Origin: an uncultured Chloroflexia bacterium
Lineage (GTDB): Bacteria > Chloroflexota > Anaerolineae > Anaerolineales > Anaerolineaceae
Direction: 5' to 3'
Assembly (NCBI GenBank): GCA_963704755.1
Contig: OY969938.1
Coordinates: forward strand, 2,250,001-2,282,000
DNA: 32,000 bases
The notes under the pieces were generated by a model. The model had not been told where the DNA came from. It saw nothing but the letters and a program-made list of their open reading frames with translations, and did not search any database. The stretch's first letter is position 1, and the number at the start of each line of letters is the position of its first letter. The position numbers and the translations under genes were made by a program. This document shows positions 1-22,861 of this stretch, in pieces.

Positions 1-3000
1 GAACCAGGCTCCGTTGGCCCCACCCGATTGGGAACTCCAGGTTTGCCAGGAGCCGTTATCCAACTGGTACTGGATATCGATGTGGTCCAGGCCCGATTGG
101 GCGTCCGATGCGCTCCAGGTCAGGTGGACCGCCGTGCTGGCGGTGGTGGACGGCAGCGTGTTGAGCTGCGAGGCCGGCTTGATCCCATCCACGGCCAGGT
201 TCAGGCGCATGTCGCCCCAGGTGTTACCGGCAAAGTCTGAAGCCTGCACATACAGGCCCCCGCCGGTCAGCCCGGATAGGCCGCTTGGGTCCACCGTAAT
301 GCCCCAGCCATCGCTGGGATCGCTGTCTTCGGCCAGGTACTGCCAGGTGCCGCTGACCCAATCCGACGAATGCCAGTAGAAATCGACCCGGGCCACGCCC
401 TGGTCGTCCGAGGCAGTTACGTCCACCTTGAACGGCTGGTTGGCGACCCAACCCTGGTTGGCCCCGCTGATGCTGACGCTGGGATGGGTGTTATCGTCCA
501 TCAAACGCAGGGTGTAAAAATAGTCCGGTCCACCCGAACCGGGGTAATCCCAGGCCTTGACCTTGAGGTAATACGTGCCGGTATAGGGCAGCACTGCTCC
601 CAAGAGCGGGTCCTGTTCGGTGTAGCGCACCCGGTCGTCGTTCTCGACGATCAACGAGCCGTTTTTATCCAGCAGGGTCAACACCGGGTCCATCTGCGAG
701 CCAATGTCTTTGGCCGAAACGGCCGCGGTGATGTGCTCGCCGGCCAGGCCGGTAAATTTGTAGTAATCGATATCGCCGGCCGGGCAAATGGTCTTGCCGC
801 TGAGAGTATTGCCCACCCCGATCGAGGTTGCCGTGGTCATGCTGTTGTCAGGCGTGGTCTCGGCGCAGGACTGGGCGCTATAGTCGCTGGTCACGTTGAA
901 GGAATTGATCAGCCAGCCGCTGCCGGTGTTCCACGAGCTGTCCAGGGTGTTGAAATAAAAGCGGATGCGCACCGTCTTGCCCTGGTAAGCCGAAAGATCG
1001 ATCGGCGGGGAGGTGAGGTCGTAATCCTGGGGATCGTCGTAAAGCTGCCCCAGCACCGGCAGGTCCTGGAATACACCCCCACCGACCGAAATCTGCACGT
1101 GGCGCTGGTCCCACAGAGCGCCGGTCGTTTCGGTATGGTAGTTATAGCCAAAGCGCAAATATGCACTACCGCTGCCGGGGATGGCAATGGGCGGGGAGGT
1201 CAGCGAGCCGGAATTGGCCCCACTGCCGGCGTAACTGGAGCCGTCCTGGTTGCCGTAGCGCCAGCCGTTGCCCACAAAAGTCCACAAGCCGTCGTGGACC
1301 CAGTCACCCGTGTCGCTGCTAAAGTCGGCCTGGTAAGGCGCGGATTTGGCCGGTTGGGAGGATAGAGAATTGTCCTGGGCGACCGTAAAGTACACCGGCC
1401 CGGTGCCGTTGGCCCGGCCGGCGTTATTCTTGGCCCAAATGCGGATGCGGTAGCGCTGGTCGTTCAGGCTGGCCGGCAGCGAGCCGATCGAGGCCCAGGG
1501 GACCTTGAGGTTATCCAGGCTGATAATGGGGGAGATGATGGCGCCGTTGCTATCGACGGTGGAAATCTCGATCTGATAGGTCGCCCCGCCGGGTACGGCA
1601 TAGCTATGGCTGGACGAATCCTGGATGCGCGGCAGCAGGGATTGGGTAGAAAGCACGCTAGAGTTGGCCAGCGGCTCGACCAGTTGCGGGCTGCCCAGGT
1701 CGCCCGAATTCATGCTGGTCGGCTGCACTTTGATCGACGAGACCGTGTCGACCCCGATCAGGTTGTCGGCCAGGTTGGGATCGCTGGTTTCCAGGGTCTC
1801 GTTACGGCCGGAATAGTTGTTGCCCTCGAACAGCACCACCCGTGTGGACGAGCCCACCTGGACCGAGGCCACCTGGTTGCTGCCCACCGACGAGCCGGCC
1901 AAATCCAGGTTGGGGATGGTCACCTCGAACCCGCTCTGGGCGAACTCACTGCACGTGCCCTGGTAATTAGCTTCAGTATACAGAATGATTTTAGTGGACG
2001 TCAGGGTACAGGCAGGCGGCGGCGAACAGGTATAGTTGTTCAAAATTGTACGCAGACCCTGGGGCAGGACGGTCACGTTGCCGTGGTTATCCCACACCTG
2101 TAAGGCGATGTCCACCGGGCCGCTGGGCACGCTGGCCCCGCACAGGTTGATCAATTCACTGAAGGGGTTAGCCGTCTGGGCCGGGCCGACATCGCGCCAG
2201 ATGCCGTCGGTACCGCGGGCGATCACCTGCATGTTGGTCACCTGCTGGTCATCCGCGCCGCTGCCGGCAACCGTGAGGGTGGAACTGGTCACCACGGTGC
2301 CCGCGGCCGGCTGGCTGAGTGTGCCGGTGGGCGGGTTGGTGCCGATGTTGCCCGAGACGTAGGTGCTGCTGCACGAGGAGGGGTTTTCGGCGCAGGTGCG
2401 CGGCCGGCCGCCATCGACGCTGACGTCATCGAAGGTAATGTCCACCGAGCTGGTCAGGTACGAGCTGCCGCTGGATTGCACCTGGAAGTGCAGGTGGCTG
2501 CCGCAGCTCGGCCCGGTGTTATCGACCGTACCCAGGAAGTCGCCCTGGTTGACCACCGCGCCGATGGTCTGCAAGCGGGTTGGAATGCTGTTGGCGGCCA
2601 TGTGCAGATAGAGCTGGTACGTGGTGGGAGTGGTACTTTTATCTTCCAGGACGATGTAATTACCGGTCGTGCCATCCGGCGGGCAAAGGCTTAAATCGCG
2701 GGTAGGGACGTCCATCTTGAACATCTTGACCGTGCCGCCCTTGGCGGCCAGGATCGACCAGTTGGGTACCCCGCCCACCCGGGCAAAGTCGAAGGCGTAA
2801 TGACACAAACCCGACGTACAGGAGGTTGAATCGTGGCTGATCGATTGGGTCAGCGTACCGGTTAGGGAGGCAGCCCAGGGCAGCTTATAGCCGCTAAAGG
2901 TCTGCTGGGTGCCATTTTCGTTGACCTTTTCGCCGGATGTAATGTAAGGCACGCGGACTTCCTGAGGCAGCAGGTCATCCGGCACCTGATCGAGCACGTT

Positions 3001-3384
3001 TTGCCAATCCGAATCGGCCTGCAAGGTCACCATCCAGGCCTGGGCGCCGACCTCGGTCTCGGTCAGGCGGGCGATCGCCAGGCCGGGTTCGCCGGGCACG
3101 GCCTCGCCGGTCTGCGGGTCGAACATGCCCAACCACAGCAGCGCCAGAGTGCCATCGGCGCTGTATTGCACATCCACAATGTGCACATCGTTGATCAGAA
3201 AGCCGAGTACTTTTGCGCCGGTATCATTGACCCGTGCCTGGAAAGCCTGCTGCAGGGTTGGGTCGATCGTTTCATTTTCGGGTGGGGGTTGGCTGGCCGC
3301 CAGGGCAACGGATGGATTCAAGAGGCCAGCCAGGAGCACGAACGCCAGCAAAACTGCCAGCGCGGATTGATTAAATCAATTCAT
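1..3384 (-). CDS. Secreted multidomain M23 (LytM-type) metallopeptidase. The C-terminal end lies beyond the window and the start is uncertain (in-frame TGA at codon 3).
   Basis: Not in the ORF track because it is open at the window edge. My reverse-complement translation from 3384 to 1 is stop-free after codon 3 (1128 codons in phase with position 1). It reads MN*FNQSALAVLLAFVLLAGLLNPSVALAAS (signal peptide). M23 motifs follow: HYAFD and GSHLHFQV. Then come a beta-gamma-crystallin-like segment (KIILYTEANYQGTCSEF...VVLFEGNNYSGRNETLETSDPNL), a MAM/immune-inhibitor-A-like segment and a PPC-type segment (CPAGDIDYYKFTGLAGEH...GTYYLKVKAW). An Ig/FN3-like tail closes the visible part. All plus-strand ORFs listed over 14..3441 are antisense artefacts of this gene. 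Confidence 0.8.
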
Positions 3385-6117: not shown

Positions 6118-7533
6118 AAGCAGGGCCATTTTCAGCGCTTCGCGCAGGGACCGCGCCTGGAGAACCTCGATGCCTTCGGGGAAGGGTTCGCCGGCGCGCG
6201 CGCCACGCGGGATAATGGCGGTTTTGAAGCCCAATTTGGCCGCTTCGCGCAAACGCGCCGTCATATGGCCCACCCAACGCAGTTCGCCCGAAAGGCCAAT
6301 TTCCCCGATCAGCACCACGTCGGCGCGCACCGAGGCATCTTGCATGGACGAGGCTATGGCCGCGGCAATAGCCAGGTCGGCAGCCGGCTCGTTGATGCGC
6401 AGCCCGCCGACTACGTTAACGAACACATCCTGGTCGGCCAGGCGCAGGCCGAGCCGGCGCGTCAGCACGGCCGTGATCAGCAGCAGCCGGTTCAGGTCCA
6501 CGCCGTTGGGTGTACGGCGCGGGTTGCCCAGATTGGAAAAGCTGGTCAGCCCTTGCAGCTCCACCAGCAGCGGGCGGGTGCCTTCCATCGTCACCGTGAT
6601 GGCCGAGCCGGGCGCATTGACCATCCGCTCGGCCAGGAACACCTCGGACGGATTGGGCACTTCGATCATGCCTGACTCGCGCATTTCGAACACCCCCACC
6701 TCCGAGGTAGCCCCAAACCGGTTTTTGACCGAGCGCAGTAAACGAAAAGTCTGGAAGCGATCGCCTTCCAGGTACAGCACCGTATCGACGATGTGCTCCA
6801 GCACCCGCGGGCCGGCGATGATGCCTTCTTTGGTCACATGACCGATGACGAAGACAGCCAACCCGCTGCTCTTGGCCAGCTCCCGCAGGCGTGAAGAGCA
6901 TTCGCGTACCTGGGTGACCGTCCCGGCGCTGGATTGCAGCTCAGGGATGTACACCGTCTGGATCGAATCGATCACCACCAGGCCGGGATTGACGTCCTGA
7001 ACGTGTTCTAATATCACGTCCAGATTGGTCTCGGTCACCAGCAAGAGATTATCCGGGATCGGCCGCTCGGGCTGGTCCTCGTTGGGGCGCAGCAGGCGCA
7101 GCGCGCGCATCTTGATCTGCCTTTCGGATTCCTCGCCGGAGACATACAGCACGTTTTGGGTATCGTAATTTCCCCGGCTGAATACATAAGCCAGTTCGAT
7201 TGTCATTTGCAAGACCAGGGTCGATTTGCCAATGCCGGGGTCGCCGCCCACCAGCACGATCGAGCCGGGCACCACTCCACCACCCAGCACACGGGCGAAC
7301 TCGCCGATCGGCAGCGGCAGGCGTTCCTCGACGTCGCCGGAGATCTCGCCCAGGCGGCGCGGCTGCGAGCGCCCGACCATCCCGCGTAATGCGGATTTGG
7401 CCTGGGGGGCCGGTTCATTGATGATCTCCTCGACCATGGTTCCATAGCTGCCGCAAGAAGGGCAGCGTCCTAACTGGCGCGGTGCGGTCCGGCCACAATT
7501 TTGGCATACGAATCGGGTTTGAATTTTAGCCAT
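6094..7533 (-). CDS. radA: DNA repair protein RadA/Sms
   Basis: 479 aa. It has an N-terminal C4 zinc finger (CQNCGRTAPRQLGRCPSCGS), a Walker A motif (GDPGIGKST), a KNRFG motif and a Lon-protease-like C-terminal domain. Confidence 0.95.
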   Translation of the reverse strand: MAKIQTRFVCQNCGRTAPRQLGRCPSCGSYGTMVEEIINEPAPQAKSALRGMVGRSQPRRLGEISGDVEERLPLPIGEFARVLGGGVVPGSIVLVGGDPGIGKSTLVLQMTIELAYVFSRGNYDTQNVLYVSGEESERQIKMRALRLLRPNEDQPERPIPDNLLLVTETNLDVILEHVQDVNPGLVVIDSIQTVYIPELQSSAGTVTQVRECSSRLRELAKSSGLAVFVIGHVTKEGIIAGPRVLEHIVDTVLYLEGDRFQTFRLLRSVKNRFGATSEVGVFEMRESGMIEVPNPSEVFLAERMVNAPGSAITVTMEGTRPLLVELQGLTSFSNLGNPRRTPNGVDLNRLLLITAVLTRRLGLRLADQDVFVNVVGGLRINEPAADLAIAAAIASSMQDASVRADVVLIGEIGLSGELRWVGHMTARLREAAKLGFKTAIIPRGARAGEPFPEGIEVLQARSLREALKMALLATTDGHK

Positions 7534-9968: not shown

Positions 9969-10358
9969 GGTAGCGTAGCTCGGGTTTCCAAACCCGAGGG
10001 AGCGCCGGCTGGGTAAATTCCCGGCGAACGAACCAGCCTTTGTCGAAAGGGAGACCCACGCAGGTGGGTCTTTGTGTACCTGTAGGTGCAGCTTTAGCTG
10101 CTCACCGATCTGGCCAAGTGGCCGGGTTTTCCTACCTGAAGATATTCCAGCCAGGCTCAACTGGCGACCAAGGTCGCGGCTACAAAAACACAAAGCCCGG
10201 CCTTCGCCGGGCTGGGGTTTGGGTAGGCAACTCGGGTTTCCAAACCCGAGGGAGCGCTGGCCAGTCAAAACCCCGGTTATGGAACTGGCCTTCACTGAAA
10301 TGGAGACCCACGCAGGTGGGTCTTTGTGTATCTGTAGGTGCAGCTTTAGCTGCTCACC
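9969..10358 (+). repeat. Mosaic multi-hairpin repeat, 2 units with a 252-bp period, in the divergent MFS/DinB intergenic region
   Basis: ctcgggtttccaaacccgag occurs at 9979 and 10231. gagacccacgcaggtgggtct occurs at 10051 and 10303. gtaggtgcagctttagctgc follows each copy. gcgaccaaggtcgc and agcccggccttcgccgggct lie between the units. Confidence 0.9.
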
Positions 10359-10404
10359 GGTCCCGGCAAAGTAGTGAAAACTAATCGCAGCACCTCCCCT
10401 TTTT

Positions 10405-11214: not shown

Positions 11215-14200
11215 TTACTCTGTTTTGATCAGGACGGCGCGCAGGACGGTGCGCGATTTGTAGGTATTTTGAGCCGGGTTGTAGTCTTCGCAGGTGATCA
11301 GCGTCAGCCAGGGCAGGGTTTCGTGGTGGAGAATCTTTAGATCGTTCGGGCGGACATCGGAATAAGATTCGCGAATTTCGTAGATGTAGCGCTCACCGTT
11401 GACGATGATGATCACCTGGTCGCCCCATTGCAGTTGAGACAGCTTCGCGAATGGCCCGGGCAAGCCATCTGCCCCTGTCACGTGGGCCGCAAGCGCGCTG
11501 TTGCCCGCCCAACCCGGGAAACTGGACCCTTGCAACCAGCCGGCTTTGTTGCCCAACCAGGTGACGTCCCAGGTGCCATCCACCAGGGGGACGCCGGTGA
11601 TCGGGATATCCACTCCCAAGCGGGGGATCTGGAGACGGATCTCGGAGCCGGGAAGAGCACCGTAGCGCTTCTCGTCCGGCTGCTGCGCGAGGTGGGTGAC
11701 GACGTCCGGAGCAAAACCCGTAGCCGGCAGCGCTTTCGCATCCAGGGGGTTGCTGTCGCCGGCGGATGATTTCGGGTCCGGGCTGACGACAAAGGTCACC
11801 TCGCCATAGATGCAGAACCCCAGATTGTCGCAGGCCCGGTAGGTGGCGCTGTCCGTGCCTGAAAAACCGGGTTCCGGGGTATAGATGATGCTGCCCAGTT
11901 GAGCGCTGCCGTGGGCCGGGTAGCGCACGATTTCCAGAGTAACCCAGGATGTTGCGCCGGTGCTCATCTGGTCGTTATCCGTCGGTTCCATCTCGATCGT
12001 GCTGCCGTCCTGCACGCTGCTGTTATCGTTTGTCGCTGACGCTCCGGCTGCGGTGCCTTTTTTCATCACTTTGATGACGACGTCCAGGTCTTTTACGTCG
12101 CTGTTGGGCGCCGTAGCCCGGATTCGGATGGGTAAATATTCTCCGCTATCCAGCGAGAGCGTACCGGTAAGGATCAACTCATGCTTCGAATTGATCACAA
12201 AATAGGACTCGTATGGGAATGCGGTCGCATCGACCAACGCGTAGGTCGTTCCGCTGATGGTGGAGTGCAGGCTGCCTACGACCGTCCCGATCGTATCGCC
12301 GTCGATAGCCTTGTCCGCGGATAGTTCCACGGTCCAATCGGCGGAGGGCACGCCGGTGTCATTCGAGACCGTAATCGCGAATTCTTTCTGGTAGGTTTCC
12401 CCGTTGCCGTCCTGGACCTGGAGGCAGATGGTGTAGCTGCCAGGCACGGCGGAAGAAGAGCGCAGCAGTCCGTTGCCCATGATGGAGAATAGAGCGTTAT
12501 CGCCAGCATCGCCGGCAGTGCACACGCTCCCGCTGGTTTCGAGGCTGAAGGTCAGCGGGGACAGCCCGCCGGTGGCGCTCACTGTGCCCACCAGATCCTG
12601 GAGGTTAGAAACGGTCGGGTTGCTCAACAGCAGGGCACTGGGCGGGTCGGTCACCTGGATGGTGAAGGCCTTTTGCTGGGTCAAGTCATCGCCTTCGCTC
12701 ACCTGGGCGCAAATCTTGTAGGAACCGCTCGATGTACCCGGTGCACGATTTAACTCCGAGCCGCTGACCGAGAACTTGGCGTTATCCGCGCTGTTATCAT
12801 CGCTGCCACATACGCTGCCGGTGGTCTCAAGCGTGTAGGTGAGTGGGGACAGACTGCCGCTGGCGCTGAAGGTACCCACCACGGTTTGTGCAGAAGAAAC
12901 GGTTGTGCGGCTCAAGGCCAGCCCGCTGGGGCCTTCGATCACCTGGATCGTGTAGGCGTATTGGGCTTTGTCGTGCCCGGCATCTTCCACTTCGATGCAG
13001 ATTTTGTAATCCCCGACCGCCGTGTCCGCCTTGCGGTCCAACATGTTGTCGGTAAACGAAAAGCTTGAGTTGCCGGTCGAATTATCCGGGGTACAGGTCG
13101 CGCCGTTGGATGCCAGGCGATAGCTGAACGGCGAACGCCCGTCCGTGACGGTGACCGCACCCACATTCGTGCCGGCCGCGCCAACGGTCAGGCGGCTGAG
13201 GGAACTGCCGTCCAGTGTGGGCGGATTGTTGATCGTGATGGAAAATGCGGTCTGCACCGTACCGCCATCTTTGTCCGCACTCTGTACGCAGATGCTGTAC
13301 GTCCCGCTGCCGGTCCCGGAAAGCCGTTCCAGGTTGCTTCCATCGACAGTGAAGGAGGCGTTATCGGCGCTGTTGGAAGCCGTGCAGACTGGACCGCTGG
13401 TTTCCAGACTGTAGATATATGGTGAACTGCTTACACTGGTAGAGAAACTTCCGACAACCGTGTGAGCGGTGGAGGTCGCGTTGTCGCTCAGGGATATTCC
13501 TCCCACCGATTGGGTGAACGAGGCGCCGGTAGACCCGGCGAATTCGGTGCTGCCGTTGTAACGAGCCGAGAGGGTGTGCACCCCTGCGGTGAGGTCGTCG
13601 GAGGTGCAGGTCGCTTGCCCGGCGGACAGCGTGCCGCTGCACACGATATCGCTGCCTTCGAGGATTTCCACCGTTCCACCTGGTGTGCCTGTCGCCGGCG
13701 ATTTGGCCGCGACCGAGACTGTGAAGATCACCGTTTCAGACAGGCTGGCCGGATCGGGAGTGTGGCTCGCCAAAGTTACTTGAGTCTGGGCCTGGTTCAC
13801 GGAGTGGGAGGTCGTGCCGCTCGAGGAATTAAAATTACTATCCCCGGCATACGAAGCCGTCAGCGTTTTGCTTCCTTGGGTGGTGGAGGTGAGGTCACAG
13901 GAGCCGCTGCCGCTGCTGAGCGCAGCAATCGTACAGGAAGCCCCGCTCCCATCGCTCACCGTCACACTGCCGGTCAGGGTACCGGTGCCCGGAGAAATGG
14001 CCGCCACGGTCACATTCACTGAATACGCCTCGCCGACTTTGCTGGGATCATTTTCATCCGAGATGATGGTCGTGGAAGTGTCCGACATATCGACGGCGTG
14101 GGCGGTCGTGCCGGTGGAGGTGTTGTAGTTGCTGTCGCCTTTGTAGGAGGCGATGATGGTCTTGGCGCCCGCGGTGGTGGAGGTGAGGTCGCAGGAACCG

Positions 14201-16218
14201 CTGCCGCCGGAGAGGGTCGTGATGGTGCAGGTAGCCCCATCTCCGTCGTCCACATCAACGCTGCCGGTGGGGGTGCCGCTGCCGGGGGAGACAGCGGATA
14301 CGGTCACGCTCACGGTGTAGGATTCGCCAACCTTGCTTGGATCGTTTGCATCGGAATTGATGCTGGTCGTAGTACTCGCCTTGTCCACGGAATGAACGGC
14401 GGTGCCGGTGGCGGATGCGAAGACCGAATCCCCGTCGTAGGAAGCCGTCAGAGTTTTCGATCCCGCGCTGGAGGAAGTCAGGCTGCACGATCCGCTGCTG
14501 GGGCTGCCCACCGTCAAAGATGCGGTGCAGGCGCCGGTTTCGCCATCATCGACCGTCACCGAACCGGTCGCCTTGCCGATGTAATCGCCGGCGACGGTGT
14601 AATTGGCGGTGTAGCTCTGCTTGCTAACCGAGGTCGAGGGCGATATGGAGGTCAGGCTGACCTTAACAAGGTGCTCGAACAGAGATGGATAAGTGTTGCC
14701 ATCGTTGATTTTCCAGGTCCCCGGTATGCTCCAGCCGACGCTGGTAAAAGTACCGGAGGTCTGCATCCCGGTGGTGGACAAAGGAACGCCTTTGCCGGTA
14801 TCACTCAGGCCCGAAACGTCGCTGTCGTAAAAGCTGGTGCTGACCGTACCGGTATTGACGGCTACCAGGCCGCCGTTGACGCTAAGAGTTGTCACGCGGG
14901 TAGCGCCGTGGATCGTGCCGTTGTTGTGATACGACGAACTGTCGTACACCGTGTCCCCGCTGGCCTCGGTCAGTTTCCAGTAGCCGATCAGCCCGGGTTC
15001 GTTGCCGGTCAACTGTTTATCTTTATCAGCCGCAATTTCAGCCGGGGTGAGTACTTTGTTCCAGAAGCGCACGTCGGCGATGTTGCCCTGGAAGAAGAGG
15101 GTAGGCGTGCCGACCGGGTCATTGCGGGCGCCAATAAAAAATTCATTCGTATTCGACGCAAGCGGATTGACCTCAGGATTAACCAGGGGAAGTGGGGCGA
15201 CCGTGCCTACGTCGACGCCGTTCTGGAAAATGTGCTGTGGAATGCCGTTGAGCAGGATCTGGACCTGCTGTTTGGAATAATCCCAGATGGTGGCCACGTG
15301 GTTCCACCCCGGCTGGAGGACGTTCTGCGCATCCTGGTAGGCCCTGGGATCATCATATGTGGTAGCTCCGCGAAGCACCGGAATAAAACGGATGCCGTCC
15401 GTGCCCGAACCGCCCCCGGTGTGGATGTCGTAATTTTCGAGGCCTTTACTGGTAATGAACTGGGTAGCCGACCTGACGGATGACGTCCAATTGAACCAGG
15501 CCTCGAGCGTGAAGCTGCTGGTCACGTAAGCTGAATTATGGGGAATGGAGATGTAATCGCTAATGCCGTCGAACTGGACGTAGGTATTGGTCACGGCGCC
15601 GGAGACGGTCGCCGCGGCGTAGGTATTGGTTAGCGTGCCGCTGTTGCTCCCTACCAGGCCACCGTTATTGTTGGCGCCGCTGACGGAGCCAATGGCGGAT
15701 GCATCGGTGATCTTCCCGGAATTAATCCCGACCAGCCCGCCGACATCGGTGGCACCGCTGACGATCCCCTGGACGGATACCCGGGCTACCGTACCTCGGT
15801 TCTCACCTGCAAGGATACCGGTCGCGTTGGCAGCCGTGATGGTGGCAGCTTCGATGTTCAGGTCAGTGACCGATCCCCCAACCCCGATCACACCGAAGAG
15901 TCCCTGATCGACGGTGGTCGATAGGGTGTTGGAAACGGCCAGGTGGCGGATCGTATGGCCGCCGCCATCCAGGCTCCCGGTGAAGGCGGTCGTTCCATCG
16001 CCCAGCGGCGTCCAGTTGAGAACGGAACCCAGGTCAATATCTGCGGTCAGGATGTAATTCCCGGCCAGGTTATCGCGAATACCGATTAGATCCGAGACTG
16101 ATCCGATATCCGTAGGTGATTGGGCCATTACTAGCGACGTTGCTGGAGTAAAAACGGTGTTTAGGAGACACACAAAAATCAGGGTACTAACCAGAATGGT
16201 GCGATTCGGTCTCTTCAT
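11215..16218 (-). CDS. Giant secreted surface protein (GLUG repeats, LamG, Ig-like x4, cadherin-like x5) with an internal LPATG motif and a C-terminal sortase domain
   Basis: 1,667-aa ORF with an ATG at 16218 and an AAGGTG RBS. The signal peptide is MKRPNRTILVSTLIFVCLLNTVFTPATSLVMA. GLUG motifs are GGLVGINSG and GGLVGSNSG. The LamG-type segment runs YVQFDGISDYISIP...GNIADVRFWN. There are repeated Ig-like units (ASYxGDSxFxxSTG) and five ~95-aa two-Cys repeats. The C-terminus is described in the next two features. Confidence 0.9.
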   Translation of the reverse strand: MKRPNRTILVSTLIFVCLLNTVFTPATSLVMAQSPTDIGSVSDLIGIRDNLAGNYILTADIDLGSVLNWTPLGDGTTAFTGSLDGGGHTIRHLAVSNTLSTTVDQGLFGVIGVGGSVTDLNIEAATITAANATGILAGENRGTVARVSVQGIVSGATDVGGLVGINSGKITDASAIGSVSGANNNGGLVGSNSGTLTNTYAAATVSGAVTNTYVQFDGISDYISIPHNSAYVTSSFTLEAWFNWTSSVRSATQFITSKGLENYDIHTGGGSGTDGIRFIPVLRGATTYDDPRAYQDAQNVLQPGWNHVATIWDYSKQQVQILLNGIPQHIFQNGVDVGTVAPLPLVNPEVNPLASNTNEFFIGARNDPVGTPTLFFQGNIADVRFWNKVLTPAEIAADKDKQLTGNEPGLIGYWKLTEASGDTVYDSSSYHNNGTIHGATRVTTLSVNGGLVAVNTGTVSTSFYDSDVSGLSDTGKGVPLSTTGMQTSGTFTSVGWSIPGTWKINDGNTYPSLFEHLVKVSLTSISPSTSVSKQSYTANYTVAGDYIGKATGSVTVDDGETGACTASLTVGSPSSGSCSLTSSSAGSKTLTASYDGDSVFASATGTAVHSVDKASTTTSINSDANDPSKVGESYTVSVTVSAVSPGSGTPTGSVDVDDGDGATCTITTLSGGSGSCDLTSTTAGAKTIIASYKGDSNYNTSTGTTAHAVDMSDTSTTIISDENDPSKVGEAYSVNVTVAAISPGTGTLTGSVTVSDGSGASCTIAALSSGSGSCDLTSTTQGSKTLTASYAGDSNFNSSSGTTSHSVNQAQTQVTLASHTPDPASLSETVIFTVSVAAKSPATGTPGGTVEILEGSDIVCSGTLSAGQATCTSDDLTAGVHTLSARYNGSTEFAGSTGASFTQSVGGISLSDNATSTAHTVVGSFSTSVSSSPYIYSLETSGPVCTASNSADNASFTVDGSNLERLSGTGSGTYSICVQSADKDGGTVQTAFSITINNPPTLDGSSLSRLTVGAAGTNVGAVTVTDGRSPFSYRLASNGATCTPDNSTGNSSFSFTDNMLDRKADTAVGDYKICIEVEDAGHDKAQYAYTIQVIEGPSGLALSRTTVSSAQTVVGTFSASGSLSPLTYTLETTGSVCGSDDNSADNAKFSVSGSELNRAPGTSSGSYKICAQVSEGDDLTQQKAFTIQVTDPPSALLLSNPTVSNLQDLVGTVSATGGLSPLTFSLETSGSVCTAGDAGDNALFSIMGNGLLRSSSAVPGSYTICLQVQDGNGETYQKEFAITVSNDTGVPSADWTVELSADKAIDGDTIGTVVGSLHSTISGTTYALVDATAFPYESYFVINSKHELILTGTLSLDSGEYLPIRIRATAPNSDVKDLDVVIKVMKKGTAAGASATNDNSSVQDGSTIEMEPTDNDQMSTGATSWVTLEIVRYPAHGSAQLGSIIYTPEPGFSGTDSATYRACDNLGFCIYGEVTFVVSPDPKSSAGDSNPLDAKALPATGFAPDVVTHLAQQPDEKRYGALPGSEIRLQIPRLGVDIPITGVPLVDGTWDVTWLGNKAGWLQGSSFPGWAGNSALAAHVTGADGLPGPFAKLSQLQWGDQVIIIVNGERYIYEIRESYSDVRPNDLKILHHETLPWLTLITCEDYNPAQNTYKSRTVLRAVLIKTE
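11218..11640 (-). other. Sortase catalytic domain (C-terminal ~140 aa of the giant ORF)
   Basis: Motifs in canonical order: LQIPRLGVDIPI, GWAGNSALAAH (His1579, 11482..11484), GDQVIIIVNGERYIYEI, LTLITC (Cys1643, 11290..11292) and RTVLRAV. Confidence 0.85.
11716..11730 (-). other. LPATG sortase-recognition motif (residues 1497-1501) inside the giant ORF
   Basis: The reverse complement of 11716..11730 is ctg ccg gct acg ggt, which translates to LPATG. The protein context is DAKALPATGFAPDVVTHLAQQPDEKRY. No hydrophobic helix or K/R tail follows. Confidence 0.85.
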
Positions 16219-17049: not shown

Positions 17050-17179
17050 CTCTCTGCGCCCTCTGCGCCTCAGCGGTGATTTCTTTCCCTGTAGTTTCAG
17101 GTAACCCCTTCGAAAGCCGGGCTACCTTGACAAAAAATCTCTTCTCCGTGTACTCTGTGCCTCCGTGGTTAATTCTTTC
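17050..17179 (+). repeat. Two CCGTGG/CTGCG-type elements. The second overlaps the stop codon of the SRPBCC gene.
   Basis: 17050..17088 is ctctctgcgccctctgcgcctcagcggtgatttctttcc. 17132..17179 is aaaaaatctcttctccgtgtactctgtgcctccgtggttaattctttc. The TAA stop (17169..17171, minus) is the ttaa of ggttaattc. Confidence 0.8.
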
Positions 17180-18053
17180 TTCCCGGTTTAACTACGAGCA
17201 AGCCCAACAGCACTGCATCGCCGGCCAGGCGGATCCACAGGGCCGGTTGCAGGTAAGTCAGCCCAAATAGCCAGACGATGGACAGCACAACGGTTACAAA
17301 CGGCAGCAGCCAGCTCCGCCGGCGCAGATAGGCCACCGCCGCCGCGATTCCGCAGCCCAGGGCGGCCAGCCATAAGACGATCTCGGCCGGCTGGACCCAG
17401 GCGGCCTCATGGCCCCCCTCTGCGCGTAGTTTGATACCTTCCATCATCTTGCGCTCCATTACAAAACCGGTCAGCGAAATGAGCGGACTGGCCCCGGCAG
17501 GCATACCTGAGCCATTAATATTGACATCCCCGGCGCGAATGCGGGTAAACAGTCGTGTTTGGCCATTTTCAAGGGGTGAGAGCGCCCAGATCCAGGTCAG
17601 GTTCATTTTCATCAAGTCCGAATCACCCTGGGCCAGCAAATATGCGTCTTTTTCAGCCTCGGCCACCTGCATGTAATCAAAGATCATGCCATCCCCTGGC
17701 TGGGGATCCTGGAATTGGGGCAAGATTTGATCCGCATTGACGTACAGGCGTTTCCCCGCGATCAGGTTCTCGATGAAGGTGTAGCTGTAAAATCCACCCC
17801 GGTCATCCCCGATCTGCGCGACCCATGGCCAGACCTGATCGACCGGCGCGTCGATGGTAATGGCCTGGTCCCAGGAAAATCCCACGTCCTGGACGACCTT
17901 ATCGCCCGGCAGGGATTGGGCCACCTCGGCCGGTGTAGCTCCCCAGGTTGGAATCCAACTCACTACATCATAGAAACCGGCCACTAAAAGCACAAGGACT
18001 ACCCCCAGCCCGGCCAACAGGCGCGTCGTTCGTGTTTGTTTATCCATTTTCAT
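17169..18053 (-). CDS. Membrane-anchored SRPBCC (START/polyketide-cyclase-like) family protein
   Basis: 294 aa. There is an N-terminal TM segment (LLAGLGVVLVLLVAGF) and a soluble core with DAPVDQVWPWVAQIG...GGFYSY, typical of SRPBCC folds. C-terminal hydrophobic helices follow. The family call is from motif memory only. Confidence 0.6.
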   Translation of the reverse strand: MKMDKQTRTTRLLAGLGVVLVLLVAGFYDVVSWIPTWGATPAEVAQSLPGDKVVQDVGFSWDQAITIDAPVDQVWPWVAQIGDDRGGFYSYTFIENLIAGKRLYVNADQILPQFQDPQPGDGMIFDYMQVAEAEKDAYLLAQGDSDLMKMNLTWIWALSPLENGQTRLFTRIRAGDVNINGSGMPAGASPLISLTGFVMERKMMEGIKLRAEGGHEAAWVQPAEIVLWLAALGCGIAAAVAYLRRRSWLLPFVTVVLSIVWLFGLTYLQPALWIRLAGDAVLLGLLVVKPGRKN

Positions 18054-20869: not shown

Positions 20870-22861
20870 TTATTGCCCGCAGGCGGAAATATCGTACAGC
20901 CGGCGAAAATCGTCCTTATATTTGGCATCCACTTCGTCCAGTAGCTTAACACAGGGTCGCTCGAACTGCGAGCGCACAGCCGAGTCGAGCCGGTCCCAGG
21001 TGTTCCGGTCCAGGTAAACATAGGCATAGCCCGCCCCGAGTAAATCAGTAAAGCCCGGCGTTTCGGTCAGCGCCTTCCATTCCGGCTTGAGCGTGTACCA
21101 GGTGGAGGAAGAATTCACCGCCCGGCCGAAGACCACCACGCTGCGGTTGGGGTTCCAATCGAAGACCATCGCATCCTTGGGCAGCCTGTTCCAGTATTTT
21201 TGCATCACCTGGGCATCCAGGGTGGTTAGGTAATCCAACTCGACCGGTTTTTGAATGGCCATAAGGTCCACCCCCAGGATGATAAATCCGGCAAACATAG
21301 CCACAAATGCCAGGCTGAGTTTCAGACCGCTGAGCTTTTTCAGGATAACCCAACCCAGCGGAATGGCATACAGCCGGGCCAGGCCCATGAAGTCGAACAG
21401 GCGGGAGGTATTAGCCACGCCGGTCACCCCGCTAAAGCGGACGAACAGCATCCCAAAAGAGAGAAACCCGGCCAGCACGTAGGCGGCTTCGAACCAGCGG
21501 CCGCTGCGGTAGGCCTTGATTCCCCAAACCGCCAGGAAAGGCAGCACCAGGACCAGCGGCCCGACTTCCGCCAGGGCCACGATCAACTGGCGTACATTAA
21601 TGAGCGACAACACCCCTAATTGCTGGGAAACGATGGCCGGTATCCAGGAAACCGTAAACTGGATGGTCTGGTACGAGGTTGGCGTGTTGTGGTAAATAAT
21701 CCTTTGAAAAATGCCGGTGAGTGTGTCTGTCCAGGCCCCGCCCTGGATCAACGCCAGGAGCGTGCCCAGGCCGGTCACCCACAGCCAGTTGCGCAGGGTC
21801 CTGGGCAAATGCAGGCTCTTGTGGCGGACGACGTAGAGCAAGGTAATCAGCGCCCAGGCCGCCAGAAATAACGCCACCGCCAATTCATAGATCAAACCGG
21901 TGGCCGCGATCAAAAGGACCGAGATGGCGCCGCCCAGCCAGCCGCGCCAGCGGTTGAAGGTCAACAGCAGCACAATAGGGATGCAGGTGGCCATTAACCC
22001 GGTGATATTGAACATATCCATCACCCCAGGCTGAATCACACCGTTGATAAACGCGAACGGGAAGGCCATTGGGCCGCCCAGGGAAGCCCAGGAATGCAGC
22101 AGGGCGTCGGCCAGGTTGGCGCCCGAAGCCTGGCCGGAGCCCAGCATTTGCACCGGTCCGGAGAGCCAGTTGAGCGCCTGGGGCGGCAAGAGTAATAACA
22201 GCCAGCGGGCGCCGCTGCCGAAAGCGGCCATGGCGCCGCCCAACAGCCCGGCCAGGCGGTTGCCGGTCACCCGCCGGGCGAACAACGCCGCCAGCAAGAT
22301 CGCCAGGGAAAAAGACAGCGCTCGAGCCAGGTCCAATGCCGTCCATATATACAAATTACCCAGGCGGACGATTTGGGCCGCGAACAGCGTTAAAGAATCG
22401 TGATACCCGTAAGCCACACTGGGATCCAGGCTGAAGACCGGCGGGATACTCCCGGCCGCCATCATCGAGGTGGTCGGCAGGTGGGCGTAATCGTCGTTGA
22501 TGGGCATCCCCCGGCCGATCTGGAAGGAAATCCATAGGATGGCCAGGAAAACCAGGAGCTGGAGCGGCTGGATGGGGATGTCCAGGGCGGAGCGCCAGCC
22601 GGAACGCATCACCAAAACGAAGCCCAGCGCCAGAACCAGCAGCGCCGCTGCCCAGGCGGCCTGGTTGACCGGCAGGATGCGTGCCAGCCAGTTGGCCAGC
22701 ACGTTTTCCATCACCATGCCGACCAGCAACCCAACCATCACTTGCTCGTGTTTGGCTAAGCGCAAAGCTGCTTTCACCAGCCAGATCCCGCCCAGGCCCC
22801 AGGCCAAGGCCCAGATGAGCAGGAATAGAATGCCGGCAGGATTTTGGGAAATATCTTGCAT
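20870..22861 (-). CDS. Large polytopic integral membrane protein with a C-terminal soluble domain. Function unknown; possibly a GT-C-like glycosyltransferase.
   Basis: 663-aa ORF that is hydrophobic throughout the first ~530 aa (more than 12 candidate TM helices). It has an early-loop acidic motif (PINDDYAH) and a polar ~130-aa C-terminus. The functional guess is weak. Confidence 0.6.
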   Translation of the reverse strand: MQDISQNPAGILFLLIWALAWGLGGIWLVKAALRLAKHEQVMVGLLVGMVMENVLANWLARILPVNQAAWAAALLVLALGFVLVMRSGWRSALDIPIQPLQLLVFLAILWISFQIGRGMPINDDYAHLPTTSMMAAGSIPPVFSLDPSVAYGYHDSLTLFAAQIVRLGNLYIWTALDLARALSFSLAILLAALFARRVTGNRLAGLLGGAMAAFGSGARWLLLLLPPQALNWLSGPVQMLGSGQASGANLADALLHSWASLGGPMAFPFAFINGVIQPGVMDMFNITGLMATCIPIVLLLTFNRWRGWLGGAISVLLIAATGLIYELAVALFLAAWALITLLYVVRHKSLHLPRTLRNWLWVTGLGTLLALIQGGAWTDTLTGIFQRIIYHNTPTSYQTIQFTVSWIPAIVSQQLGVLSLINVRQLIVALAEVGPLVLVLPFLAVWGIKAYRSGRWFEAAYVLAGFLSFGMLFVRFSGVTGVANTSRLFDFMGLARLYAIPLGWVILKKLSGLKLSLAFVAMFAGFIILGVDLMAIQKPVELDYLTTLDAQVMQKYWNRLPKDAMVFDWNPNRSVVVFGRAVNSSSTWYTLKPEWKALTETPGFTDLLGAGYAYVYLDRNTWDRLDSAVRSQFERPCVKLLDEVDAKYKDDFRRLYDISACGQ

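Follow-up and report, generated by a model that had tools for sequence, protein, structure and literature searches.

A sortase domain with its own LPxTG motif at the C terminus of large secreted proteins of Anaerolineae: a candidate self-sorting module

The window analyzed here is a 32,000-nucleotide stretch of contig OY969938.1 (positions 2,250,001 to 2,282,000; assembly GCA_963704755.1) from an uncultured Chloroflexia bacterium of the family Anaerolineaceae. The subject of this report is an open reading frame (ORF) on its minus strand that starts at an ATG and encodes a 1667-amino-acid protein predicted to be secreted. The protein consists of a signal peptide, a long passenger, an LPATG motif, a polar linker and a sortase domain; the last three parts together are called the module below. 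The features of this gene are as follows.

11215..16218, minus strand: the whole ORF
16123..16218, minus strand: signal peptide, residues 1-32 (MKRPNRTILVSTLIFVCLLNTVFTPATSLVMA), the sole hydrophobic segment of the protein
11731..16122, minus strand: passenger, residues 33-1496, annotated by a Pfam scan and repeat regular expressions
within the passenger, residues 217-396: Laminin_G_3 (Pfam)
within the passenger: four stretches of Big_3_5, Ig-like (Pfam)
within the passenger, residues 945-1265: four Cys-pair repeats of about 96 residues (repeat regular expression)
within the passenger, residues 1395-1475: one Big_9 (Pfam)
11716..11730, minus strand: LPATG motif, residues 1497-1501, with the predicted scissile bond Thr1500-Gly1501
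11638..11715, minus strand: FAP and polar linker, residues 1502-1527 (FAPDVVTHLAQQPDEKRYGALPGSEI), joining the motif to strand β1
11218..11637, minus strand: sortase catalytic domain, residues 1528-1667, reaching the stop codon at 11215..11217
11482..11484, minus strand: catalytic His1579 (in GNSALAAH), codon checked, invariant in 273 aligned modules
11290..11292, minus strand: catalytic Cys1643 (in TLITC), codon checked, invariant in the same 273
11251..11253, minus strand: catalytic Arg1656 (in KSR), 13 residues past the Cys, codon checked, invariant in the same 273

The only hydrophobic stretch of the protein is N-terminal. In a Kyte-Doolittle profile with a 19-residue window, the maximum was 2.04 at residue 8, with maxima of 1.28 past residue 45 and 0.85 within residues 1497-1667, and by this measure no transmembrane (TM)-like segment was found downstream of the signal peptide, which would be cleaved after VMA. 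An earlier note, made from the sequence alone, had described a lone N-terminal signal peptide, and the profile agrees with this. The note had also placed LPATG at residues 1497-1501, where we found it, and had called the segment after it a polar linker and not a hydrophobic helix; the mean Kyte-Doolittle value of FAPDVVTHLAQQPDEKRYGALPGSEI was -0.62, as expected of such a linker. Its labels for the passenger held only in part: LamG corresponds to the Laminin_G_3 match and the four Ig-like domains to the four Big_3_5 stretches, whereas GLUG and five cadherin-like domains had no support in Pfam. The repeat expressions picked out GGLVG-type repeats in the passenger. The arrangement is not that of a canonical sorting signal, because LPATG begins 171 residues from the end of the protein and is followed by the polar linker and a 140-residue sortase domain.

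The C-terminal domain matched the Pfam family Sortase (PF04203) over residues 1529-1663 with 69.8 bits, relative to a cutoff of 26.6. The 184-residue tail was modeled with AlphaFold2 (AF2), and the model was read as predicted local distance difference test (pLDDT) scores and DSSP secondary structure; the mean pLDDT was 89.4 and the predicted template modeling score was 0.86. Foldseek returned the sortase fold, an eight-stranded β-barrel, with a probability of 1.0 and TM-scores of 0.6-0.7 to solved class C, D, E and A sortases, and the best E-value of a profile search of the PDB was 1.6e-13. The complete sortase fold with His1579 and Cys1643 that the earlier note had proposed is therefore upheld by the PF04203 match and by the invariance of both residues. 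The note had assigned the catalytic Arg to the string RTVLRAV, and here the two arginines fared differently: Arg1656 is the invariant one, whereas Arg1660 was not invariant in a 32-sequence alignment. The spacing of 13 residues from Cys to Arg matches that of C184 and R197 in Staphylococcus aureus SrtA.

By both structure and profile, the nearest solved proteins were lid-bearing class C pilus sortases; 174 of the 184 columns were aligned by Foldseek with class C structures, the N-terminal extension included. It was also found that HMMER aligned the GFAP of the module with GLDPF of E. faecalis SrtC, which we take to be the DPF lid motif of that enzyme, at an equal distance of 27-28 residues from β1. 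The hallmarks of class C are nevertheless absent, as LPxTGFAP stands in the place of the lid, there is no TM helix, the neighboring genes are housekeeping genes and there is no conserved partner. The enzyme has no membrane anchor of its own: the signal peptide lies 1,500 residues upstream, and the homologues are alike in this respect. The class C model of NCBIfam (NF033745) gave 35.2 bits with the whole protein and 40.5 bits with the module (cutoff 160), and the scores of the 187-residue module with the other class models were 49.7 for class E (NF033747, cutoff 160), 47.1 for class F (NF033748, cutoff 166), 31.7 for class D (NF033746, cutoff 165) and 19.1 for GN (TIGR03784, cutoff 158). Therefore, no class model of NCBIfam came near its cutoff, and this collection holds no model for the module.

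The module belongs to a large family, which we defined by [LI]PxTGFAP, a conserved linker of about 27 residues and a sortase domain that closes the protein, with a Thr-to-Cys spacing of 138-143 residues. A search with the last 184 residues found about 40 metagenomic proteins with 45-57% identity to the window sequence, nearly all of which carry [LIVA]PxTGFAP about 30 residues ahead of the sortase domain. When 1.84 billion representative proteins were searched with a profile, 1,501 clusters were matched at E<=1e-30 and 5,315 at E<=1e-10; the module was at the extreme C terminus in each of the best 150 representatives, which ranged from 207 to 5,482 amino acids. At least 570 copies were confirmed when one genome per species was scanned with trimmed modules, and the best 80 of these, from 76 genomes and totaling 1.1 Mb, served as the set of loci for examining gene neighborhoods. 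The carriers of these best 80 were nearly all Anaerolineales or Chloroflexota and included the cultured Ornatilinea apprima and metagenome-assembled genomes (MAGs) assigned to Levilinea, Longilinea and Ca. Villigracilis. One module locus (L064, CALOCI010000015.1) is in a MAG labeled Thermodesulfobacteriota, a label that may reflect mis-binning or transfer.

Within the 1.1 Mb, all 77 occurrences of xPxTG[FYWL][AS]P were located 166-183 residues before an ORF stop; a TLITC-type sortase motif came after 76 of them, and the β1 sequence of the module after the 77th. Full-length members had signal peptides and no later TM segment, and the N termini of 22 of 36 full-length homologues resembled the signal peptide of the window protein. 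The passengers are varied but of adhesin type (DUF11/CLIPPER, DUF7507/CLIPPER_2, Big_9, Cadherin_5, SdrD_B and DUF7933), and at some loci two or three neighboring genes each have a module of their own. No conserved partner gene was found around the 80 loci, where lineage synteny alone was seen, and no standalone sortase was found near the module genes in the 1.1 Mb. Candidates for canonical sorting signals near the module genes all turned out to be short spurious ORFs. In the 32 kb of the window, as the earlier note had stated, there was neither a second sortase domain nor a sorting-signal-like LPxTG.

Conservation was evaluated over a profile alignment of 273 unique modules. The frequencies of the motif residues were 0.86 for L, 1.00 for P, 0.97 for T and 1.00 for G, and the catalytic His, Cys and Arg were each at 1.00. 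In contrast to these residues, position x was hypervariable, with 18 residue types of which A was the commonest at 0.40, and 15 types were present among the 149 other best representatives. The loss of LPATG among orthologues, which the earlier note had named as a reason to abandon its proposal, was thus not seen. After the Gly, FAP was conserved at 1.00, 0.96 and 0.96, and the conserved positions of the linker were T14, L16, P17, Q19, P20 and Y25. The spacing from Thr to Cys was 138-143 residues in nearly all members, and the window module, which shares 45-58% identity with members of the family, keeps all invariant columns. Because the whole arrangement is conserved across hundreds of independent sequences, chance is excluded as its origin. 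The spacing and the linker are under selection, as would be expected for docking in cis and not for a free signal for an enzyme in trans. In the AF2 model, the pLDDT was about 88 for the LPATGFAP block, 82 for the first half of the linker and 66 for the next block, and because of the first two values LPATGFAP and the first linker half are predicted to lie ordered on the sortase domain. To judge from the aligned modules, the linker is not a free tether.

Standalone sortases of the same lineage provide a comparison. The nearest standalone relatives of the module are N-terminally anchored sortases of about 255 amino acids that are 35-38% identical to the module domain and that, where named, are labeled Anaerolineae or Chloroflexota. 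An N-terminal TM segment was present in 116 of the 120 closest standalone sortases, and LPxTG was present in none of the 120. The profile-profile alignment of the module with these sortases starts at β1, and therefore the segments before β1 are unrelated in the two groups; an AF2 model of one standalone sortase (P0234) was of low confidence, with a mean pLDDT of 68 and values of 64-76 in the pre-β1 segment. Proteins with a textbook LPETG, TM and K/R signal are encoded beside standalone sortases at locus L081 (...FLPETGTKEAEQGQSVVNLIIAFTVVTVSAASCWFWYKNKQAK...) and locus L087 (...LLPETGVGVTAVTSMTGWLLGWSLLGIGGIAVLYLWCKIKRG, ending at the stop), and therefore the lineage has the classical arrangement. 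The canonical trans sortase system and the module coexist within the class Anaerolineae. On these sequence comparisons, only the fusion has LPxTG beside the enzyme, and only the module has FAP past the Gly.

More distant sortases of about 300 amino acids (P0042, P0043, P0044 and P0046) have an N-terminal cytoplasmic segment and a TM anchor, and between the TM segment and the catalytic domain they have two copies of ELPGSSF(P/A)P. We read ELPGSSFPP as a probable uncleavable look-alike of LPxTGFAP, in which S-S replaces T-G.

Two further types of C terminus were seen next to standalone sortases. A secreted protein of about 255 amino acids is encoded directly downstream of the standalone sortase at three loci (L081 10948-11727, L086 9130-9903 and L087 9051-9803) and ends with FIP(T/S)(V/I)(T/S)GFS(L/A)(S/A)PLRD, a TM segment and RRRR; this non-canonical IPxx[ST]GF signal has TGF in common with the module motif. 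Directly upstream of standalone sortases there are pairs of a giant CLIPPER/SdrD_B protein and a 986-amino-acid Peptidase_C25 protein (L083 504-6857 and 6896-9856; L085 1-4851 and 4894-7854; L084 1-1560 and 1599-4559). These proteins have no TM helix at the end and terminate with (K/H)(I/L)YLP(L/R/I)I(T/F/V)(R/K)(Q) at the stop, which may be an unusual extreme-C-terminal tag. C-terminal peptides of the Litorilinea grappling-hook protein GhlA resemble this ending. GhlA, a 6,596-amino-acid DUF11 protein, was considered as a module protein and rejected, as its C-terminal peptides (for example YFYWLQEVTR, 6557-6566) are similar to the type ...YWLVDVD...YLPLI and not to a sortase module.

With modest conviction, we favor the interpretation that the last approximately 170 residues are an autonomous, single-use self-sorting module that would cleave its own T-G bond, hold the passenger as a thioester and transfer it to an amine of the cell envelope. 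In doing so it would, by a similarly narrow judgment, probably stand in both for the LPXTG, membrane helix and K/R tail of a sorting signal and for the separate membrane-bound sortase. Several lines of evidence lead to this interpretation. Conservation of the scissile residues is as strict as that of the catalytic triad, and x is hypervariable; the spacing and linker are under selection, and the motif falls precisely on the domain boundary; neither a membrane anchor nor a partner is present, and the standalone enzymes lack the motif; and engineered single-chain sortase-LPXTG fusions self-cleave (PMC2901362). Autoprocessing after Thr1500 appears to be the best-supported mechanism.

In this mechanism, the protein would be exported via Sec by its N-terminal signal peptide, and the sortase domain would fold outside the membrane, with the conserved FAP-linker holding its own LPATG in or beside the groove. 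Cys1643 would then attack the Thr1500-Gly1501 bond, either in cis or between neighboring copies, such that the passenger of about 1,470 amino acids would be bound to the sortase domain as a thioester and the domain would start with a new GFAP N terminus. An envelope amine would resolve the thioester, leaving the passenger covalently anchored and releasing a 167-residue GFAP-sortase fragment. The likeliest acceptor would be an amine of a peptidoglycan stem peptide or cross-bridge, or else a Lys of another surface protein; ornithine-type peptidoglycan was reported for one Chloroflexota species (bioRxiv 10.1101/2025.08.19.671072). A more specific form, which we regard as quite possible without calling it probable, is a suicide-sortase tag in which the LPxTG is pre-docked and the passenger is a latent thioester that is ligated to wall, sheath or protein independently of membrane and lipid II, alongside the trans system.

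Several points weigh against self-sorting. By its spacing, it is the proline of FAP and not that of LPATG that appears to match the lid proline of class C, and therefore the segment could be a lid with LPATG just outside the groove. The presence of ELPGSSFPP twice at the equivalent place in the TM-anchored relatives suggests that substrate-mimic lids exist in the lineage. It is not obvious how a sortase outside the membrane would reach lipid II. Furthermore, one enzyme per substrate is costly, and the advantage is a matter of conjecture, a possible one being anchoring to layers that are out of the reach of a membrane enzyme. Covariation between linker and domain was also weak: mean-field direct coupling analysis of the 273 modules gave linker-to-groove couplings T14-L80, A2-T85 and L3-F71 at ranks 33-108, although this analysis was underpowered at an effective number of sequences of 229 and was not used as evidence.

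The first of these points leads to the main alternative, namely that LPATGFAP is a pseudo-substrate lid, uncleaved and autoinhibitory in its own groove like the DP[WFY] of class C, on a tethered sortase that acts in trans. Class C lids have been described as pseudo-substrates, with DP[YF] overlapping the LPAT peptide of a SrtA complex such that the prolines coincide (PMC3493515). Among solved structures, the lid-bearing class C sortases are the closest, aligned through the N-terminal extension, and the alignment of GFAP with the SrtC GLDPF at an equal distance from β1 is consistent with a lid, as are the two ELPGSSFPP copies in P0042-P0046. The position of the module motif at the class C lid position means that the segment is able to reach the groove in the substrate orientation; this would support docking in cis and would equally allow a pure lid role. 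A lid would have no need of an exact scissile T-G, yet T and G are at 0.97 and 1.00 with x free, and the motif is exactly at the junction of passenger and enzyme. None of the 120 nearest standalone relatives has the motif, and the 1.1 Mb around module genes contained neither further LPxTG substrates nor canonical sorting signals. With a lid, each lineage would have dozens of giant proteins that are unanchored, each with an active sortase that has no target. We consider the lid unlikely.

We are no more than faintly inclined to the idea that LPATG is cut by a standalone membrane sortase, which attaches the passenger to lipid II, with the C-terminal domain being a retention signal or performing a second step of cross-linking, as in pilus assembly by class C plus class A enzymes. 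Anaerolineae do encode the conserved family of N-terminally anchored sortases of about 255 amino acids, which is 35-38% identical to the module domain and acts, judged by gene context, on LPETG signals, and the conserved neighbor of these sortases ends with IPxx[ST]GF, a TM segment and RRRR, sharing TGF with the module. The perfect triad in 273 of 273 modules would be needless in a mere retention device, though, and a soluble domain cannot keep a precursor at the membrane. The fixed motif-to-Cys spacing and conserved linker would likewise be needless for a trans signal, no standalone sortase was near the module genes in the loci examined, and the joint presence of both systems was seen at the level of the class alone.

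Self-release or polymerization, in which hydrolysis of T-G would shed the passenger or passengers would be joined head-to-tail or via Lys into covalent fibers or a sheath, is highly improbable in our view: sortases do hydrolyze their substrates when a nucleophile is absent, the nearest structural relatives are pilus polymerases and Anaerolineae are filamentous, but a stop codon would be a cheaper means of release, no conserved pilin-type gene clusters were seen, the diversity of the passengers leaves no room for a shared pilin-motif Lys, and the head-to-tail form raised in the earlier note is disfavored because the predicted mature N termini of the homologues are not conserved and share no Gly or Ala nucleophile. 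The richness of the passengers in pilin-like domains of the CnaA/CnaB type (the CLIPPER family, PMC12617251) also speaks for polymerization.

The neighbors of the ORF are housekeeping genes (holA, a radA-like gene, an MFS transporter gene, DinB, tyrS, PP2C and FHA), and no RNA genes turned up when the window was scanned with Rfam and for tRNAs. The other features, one per line, are as follows.

1-3375, minus strand: the N-terminal 1,125 residues of another large secreted protein, which has Peptidase_M23, PPC and Big_7 domains and whose C terminus is beyond the window start
9979-10117 and 10231-10369: two copies of a 139-nucleotide direct repeat with 83% identity, each opening with the palindrome CTCGGGTTTCCAAACCCGAG, in the intergenic region that separates the MFS and DinB genes
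17169-18053, minus strand: a 294-residue membrane-like ORF without a Pfam match
20870-22861, minus strand: a 663-residue ORF without a Pfam match, adjoining the PP2C phosphatase and FHA-domain genes

The 139-nucleotide repeats look like a small element of the repetitive extragenic palindrome (REP) or miniature inverted-repeat transposable element (MITE) type, and the overlapping ORFs on both strands at this place are probably spurious.

In the sortase paradigm, a separate membrane-anchored enzyme serves many substrates that are held by a TM segment and K/R tail. If the self-sorting interpretation is true, there are more than 1,500 clusters in which each substrate brings its own soluble sortase, which would be a different route to covalent attachment to the envelope in a poorly understood, filamentous and probably monoderm phylum. 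The architecture is widespread, strongly constrained and surprising from the viewpoint of a sortase specialist. The database names of module proteins are just "sortase" or "LPXTG-site transpeptidase family protein", and thus adhesin-like proteins of 270 to 5,482 amino acids are currently named after the sortase domain alone. The module also makes it plausible that true substrates and the pseudo-substrate lids of class C are linked in evolution. A self-contained, possibly Ca-independent cargo-LPxTG-sortase cassette of about 170 residues would, if it activates its own cargo, be appealing for surface display and for the ligation of proteins. The openly searchable full-text literature yielded no description of a natural cis fusion of sortase and substrate, subscription-only papers being outside this scope. 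A 2025 survey of surface proteins with isopeptide domains sought sortase motifs only in the last 50 residues (PMC12617251), and therefore module proteins would be missed by it.

Compared with the canonical sortase/LPXTG system, as in S. aureus SrtA, the module has in common the fold, the His/Cys/Arg triad and the logic of the pentapeptide, in which L, P, T and G are fixed and x is free, and canonical substrates are likewise secreted, multidomain, adhesin-like proteins. It differs in that enzyme and substrate are on one polypeptide and the enzyme has no membrane anchor. Past the motif there is no hydrophobic helix or basic tail, and what comes after the Gly is instead an invariant FAP and then a conserved linker; the motif is about 170 residues from the C terminus, whereas the canonical distance is about 35. 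Each enzyme of the module presumably performs one turnover. The class C pilus sortases likewise have a segment about 27-34 residues upstream of β1 that is placed to fill the groove. In contrast to these enzymes, the module has a genuine LPxTG where they have the DP[W/F/Y] lid, and it has neither a C-terminal TM helix nor a pilin operon.

Self-cleavage in a single chain is seen in engineered proteins, namely the SrtA-LPXTG-target fusions of Mao and the BISOP method (PMC2901362). These fusions are artificial and have the order enzyme-motif-cargo, such that the cargo is the leaving group. In the module the order is cargo-motif-enzyme, and the cargo would become the activated acyl donor.

In the Hog/Hint domains of Hedgehog proteins and in the self-processing "clip-and-link" module of Neisseria FrpC, a C-terminal domain cuts the chain where the domain itself begins, by way of an ester or thioester, and passes the N-terminal passenger to a nucleophile in a single turnover. 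The suicide-sortase form of self-sorting would be a Hedgehog-like autoprocessing and transfer in cis, built on a sortase fold; the analogy with Hog/Hint and FrpC is one of function only, as the folds and chemistry are unrelated and there is no homology. The PEP-CTERM/exosortase system and the C-terminal domains of the type IX secretion system (T9SS), with PorU, also provide portable C-terminal tags on many unrelated surface proteins within one lineage, often in many copies per genome. In those systems the enzyme is a separate membrane protein, whereas in the module the enzyme is a part of the tag, and the novelty lies in sortase/LPXTG chemistry in a new architecture that is fused, anchor-less and presumably single-turnover.

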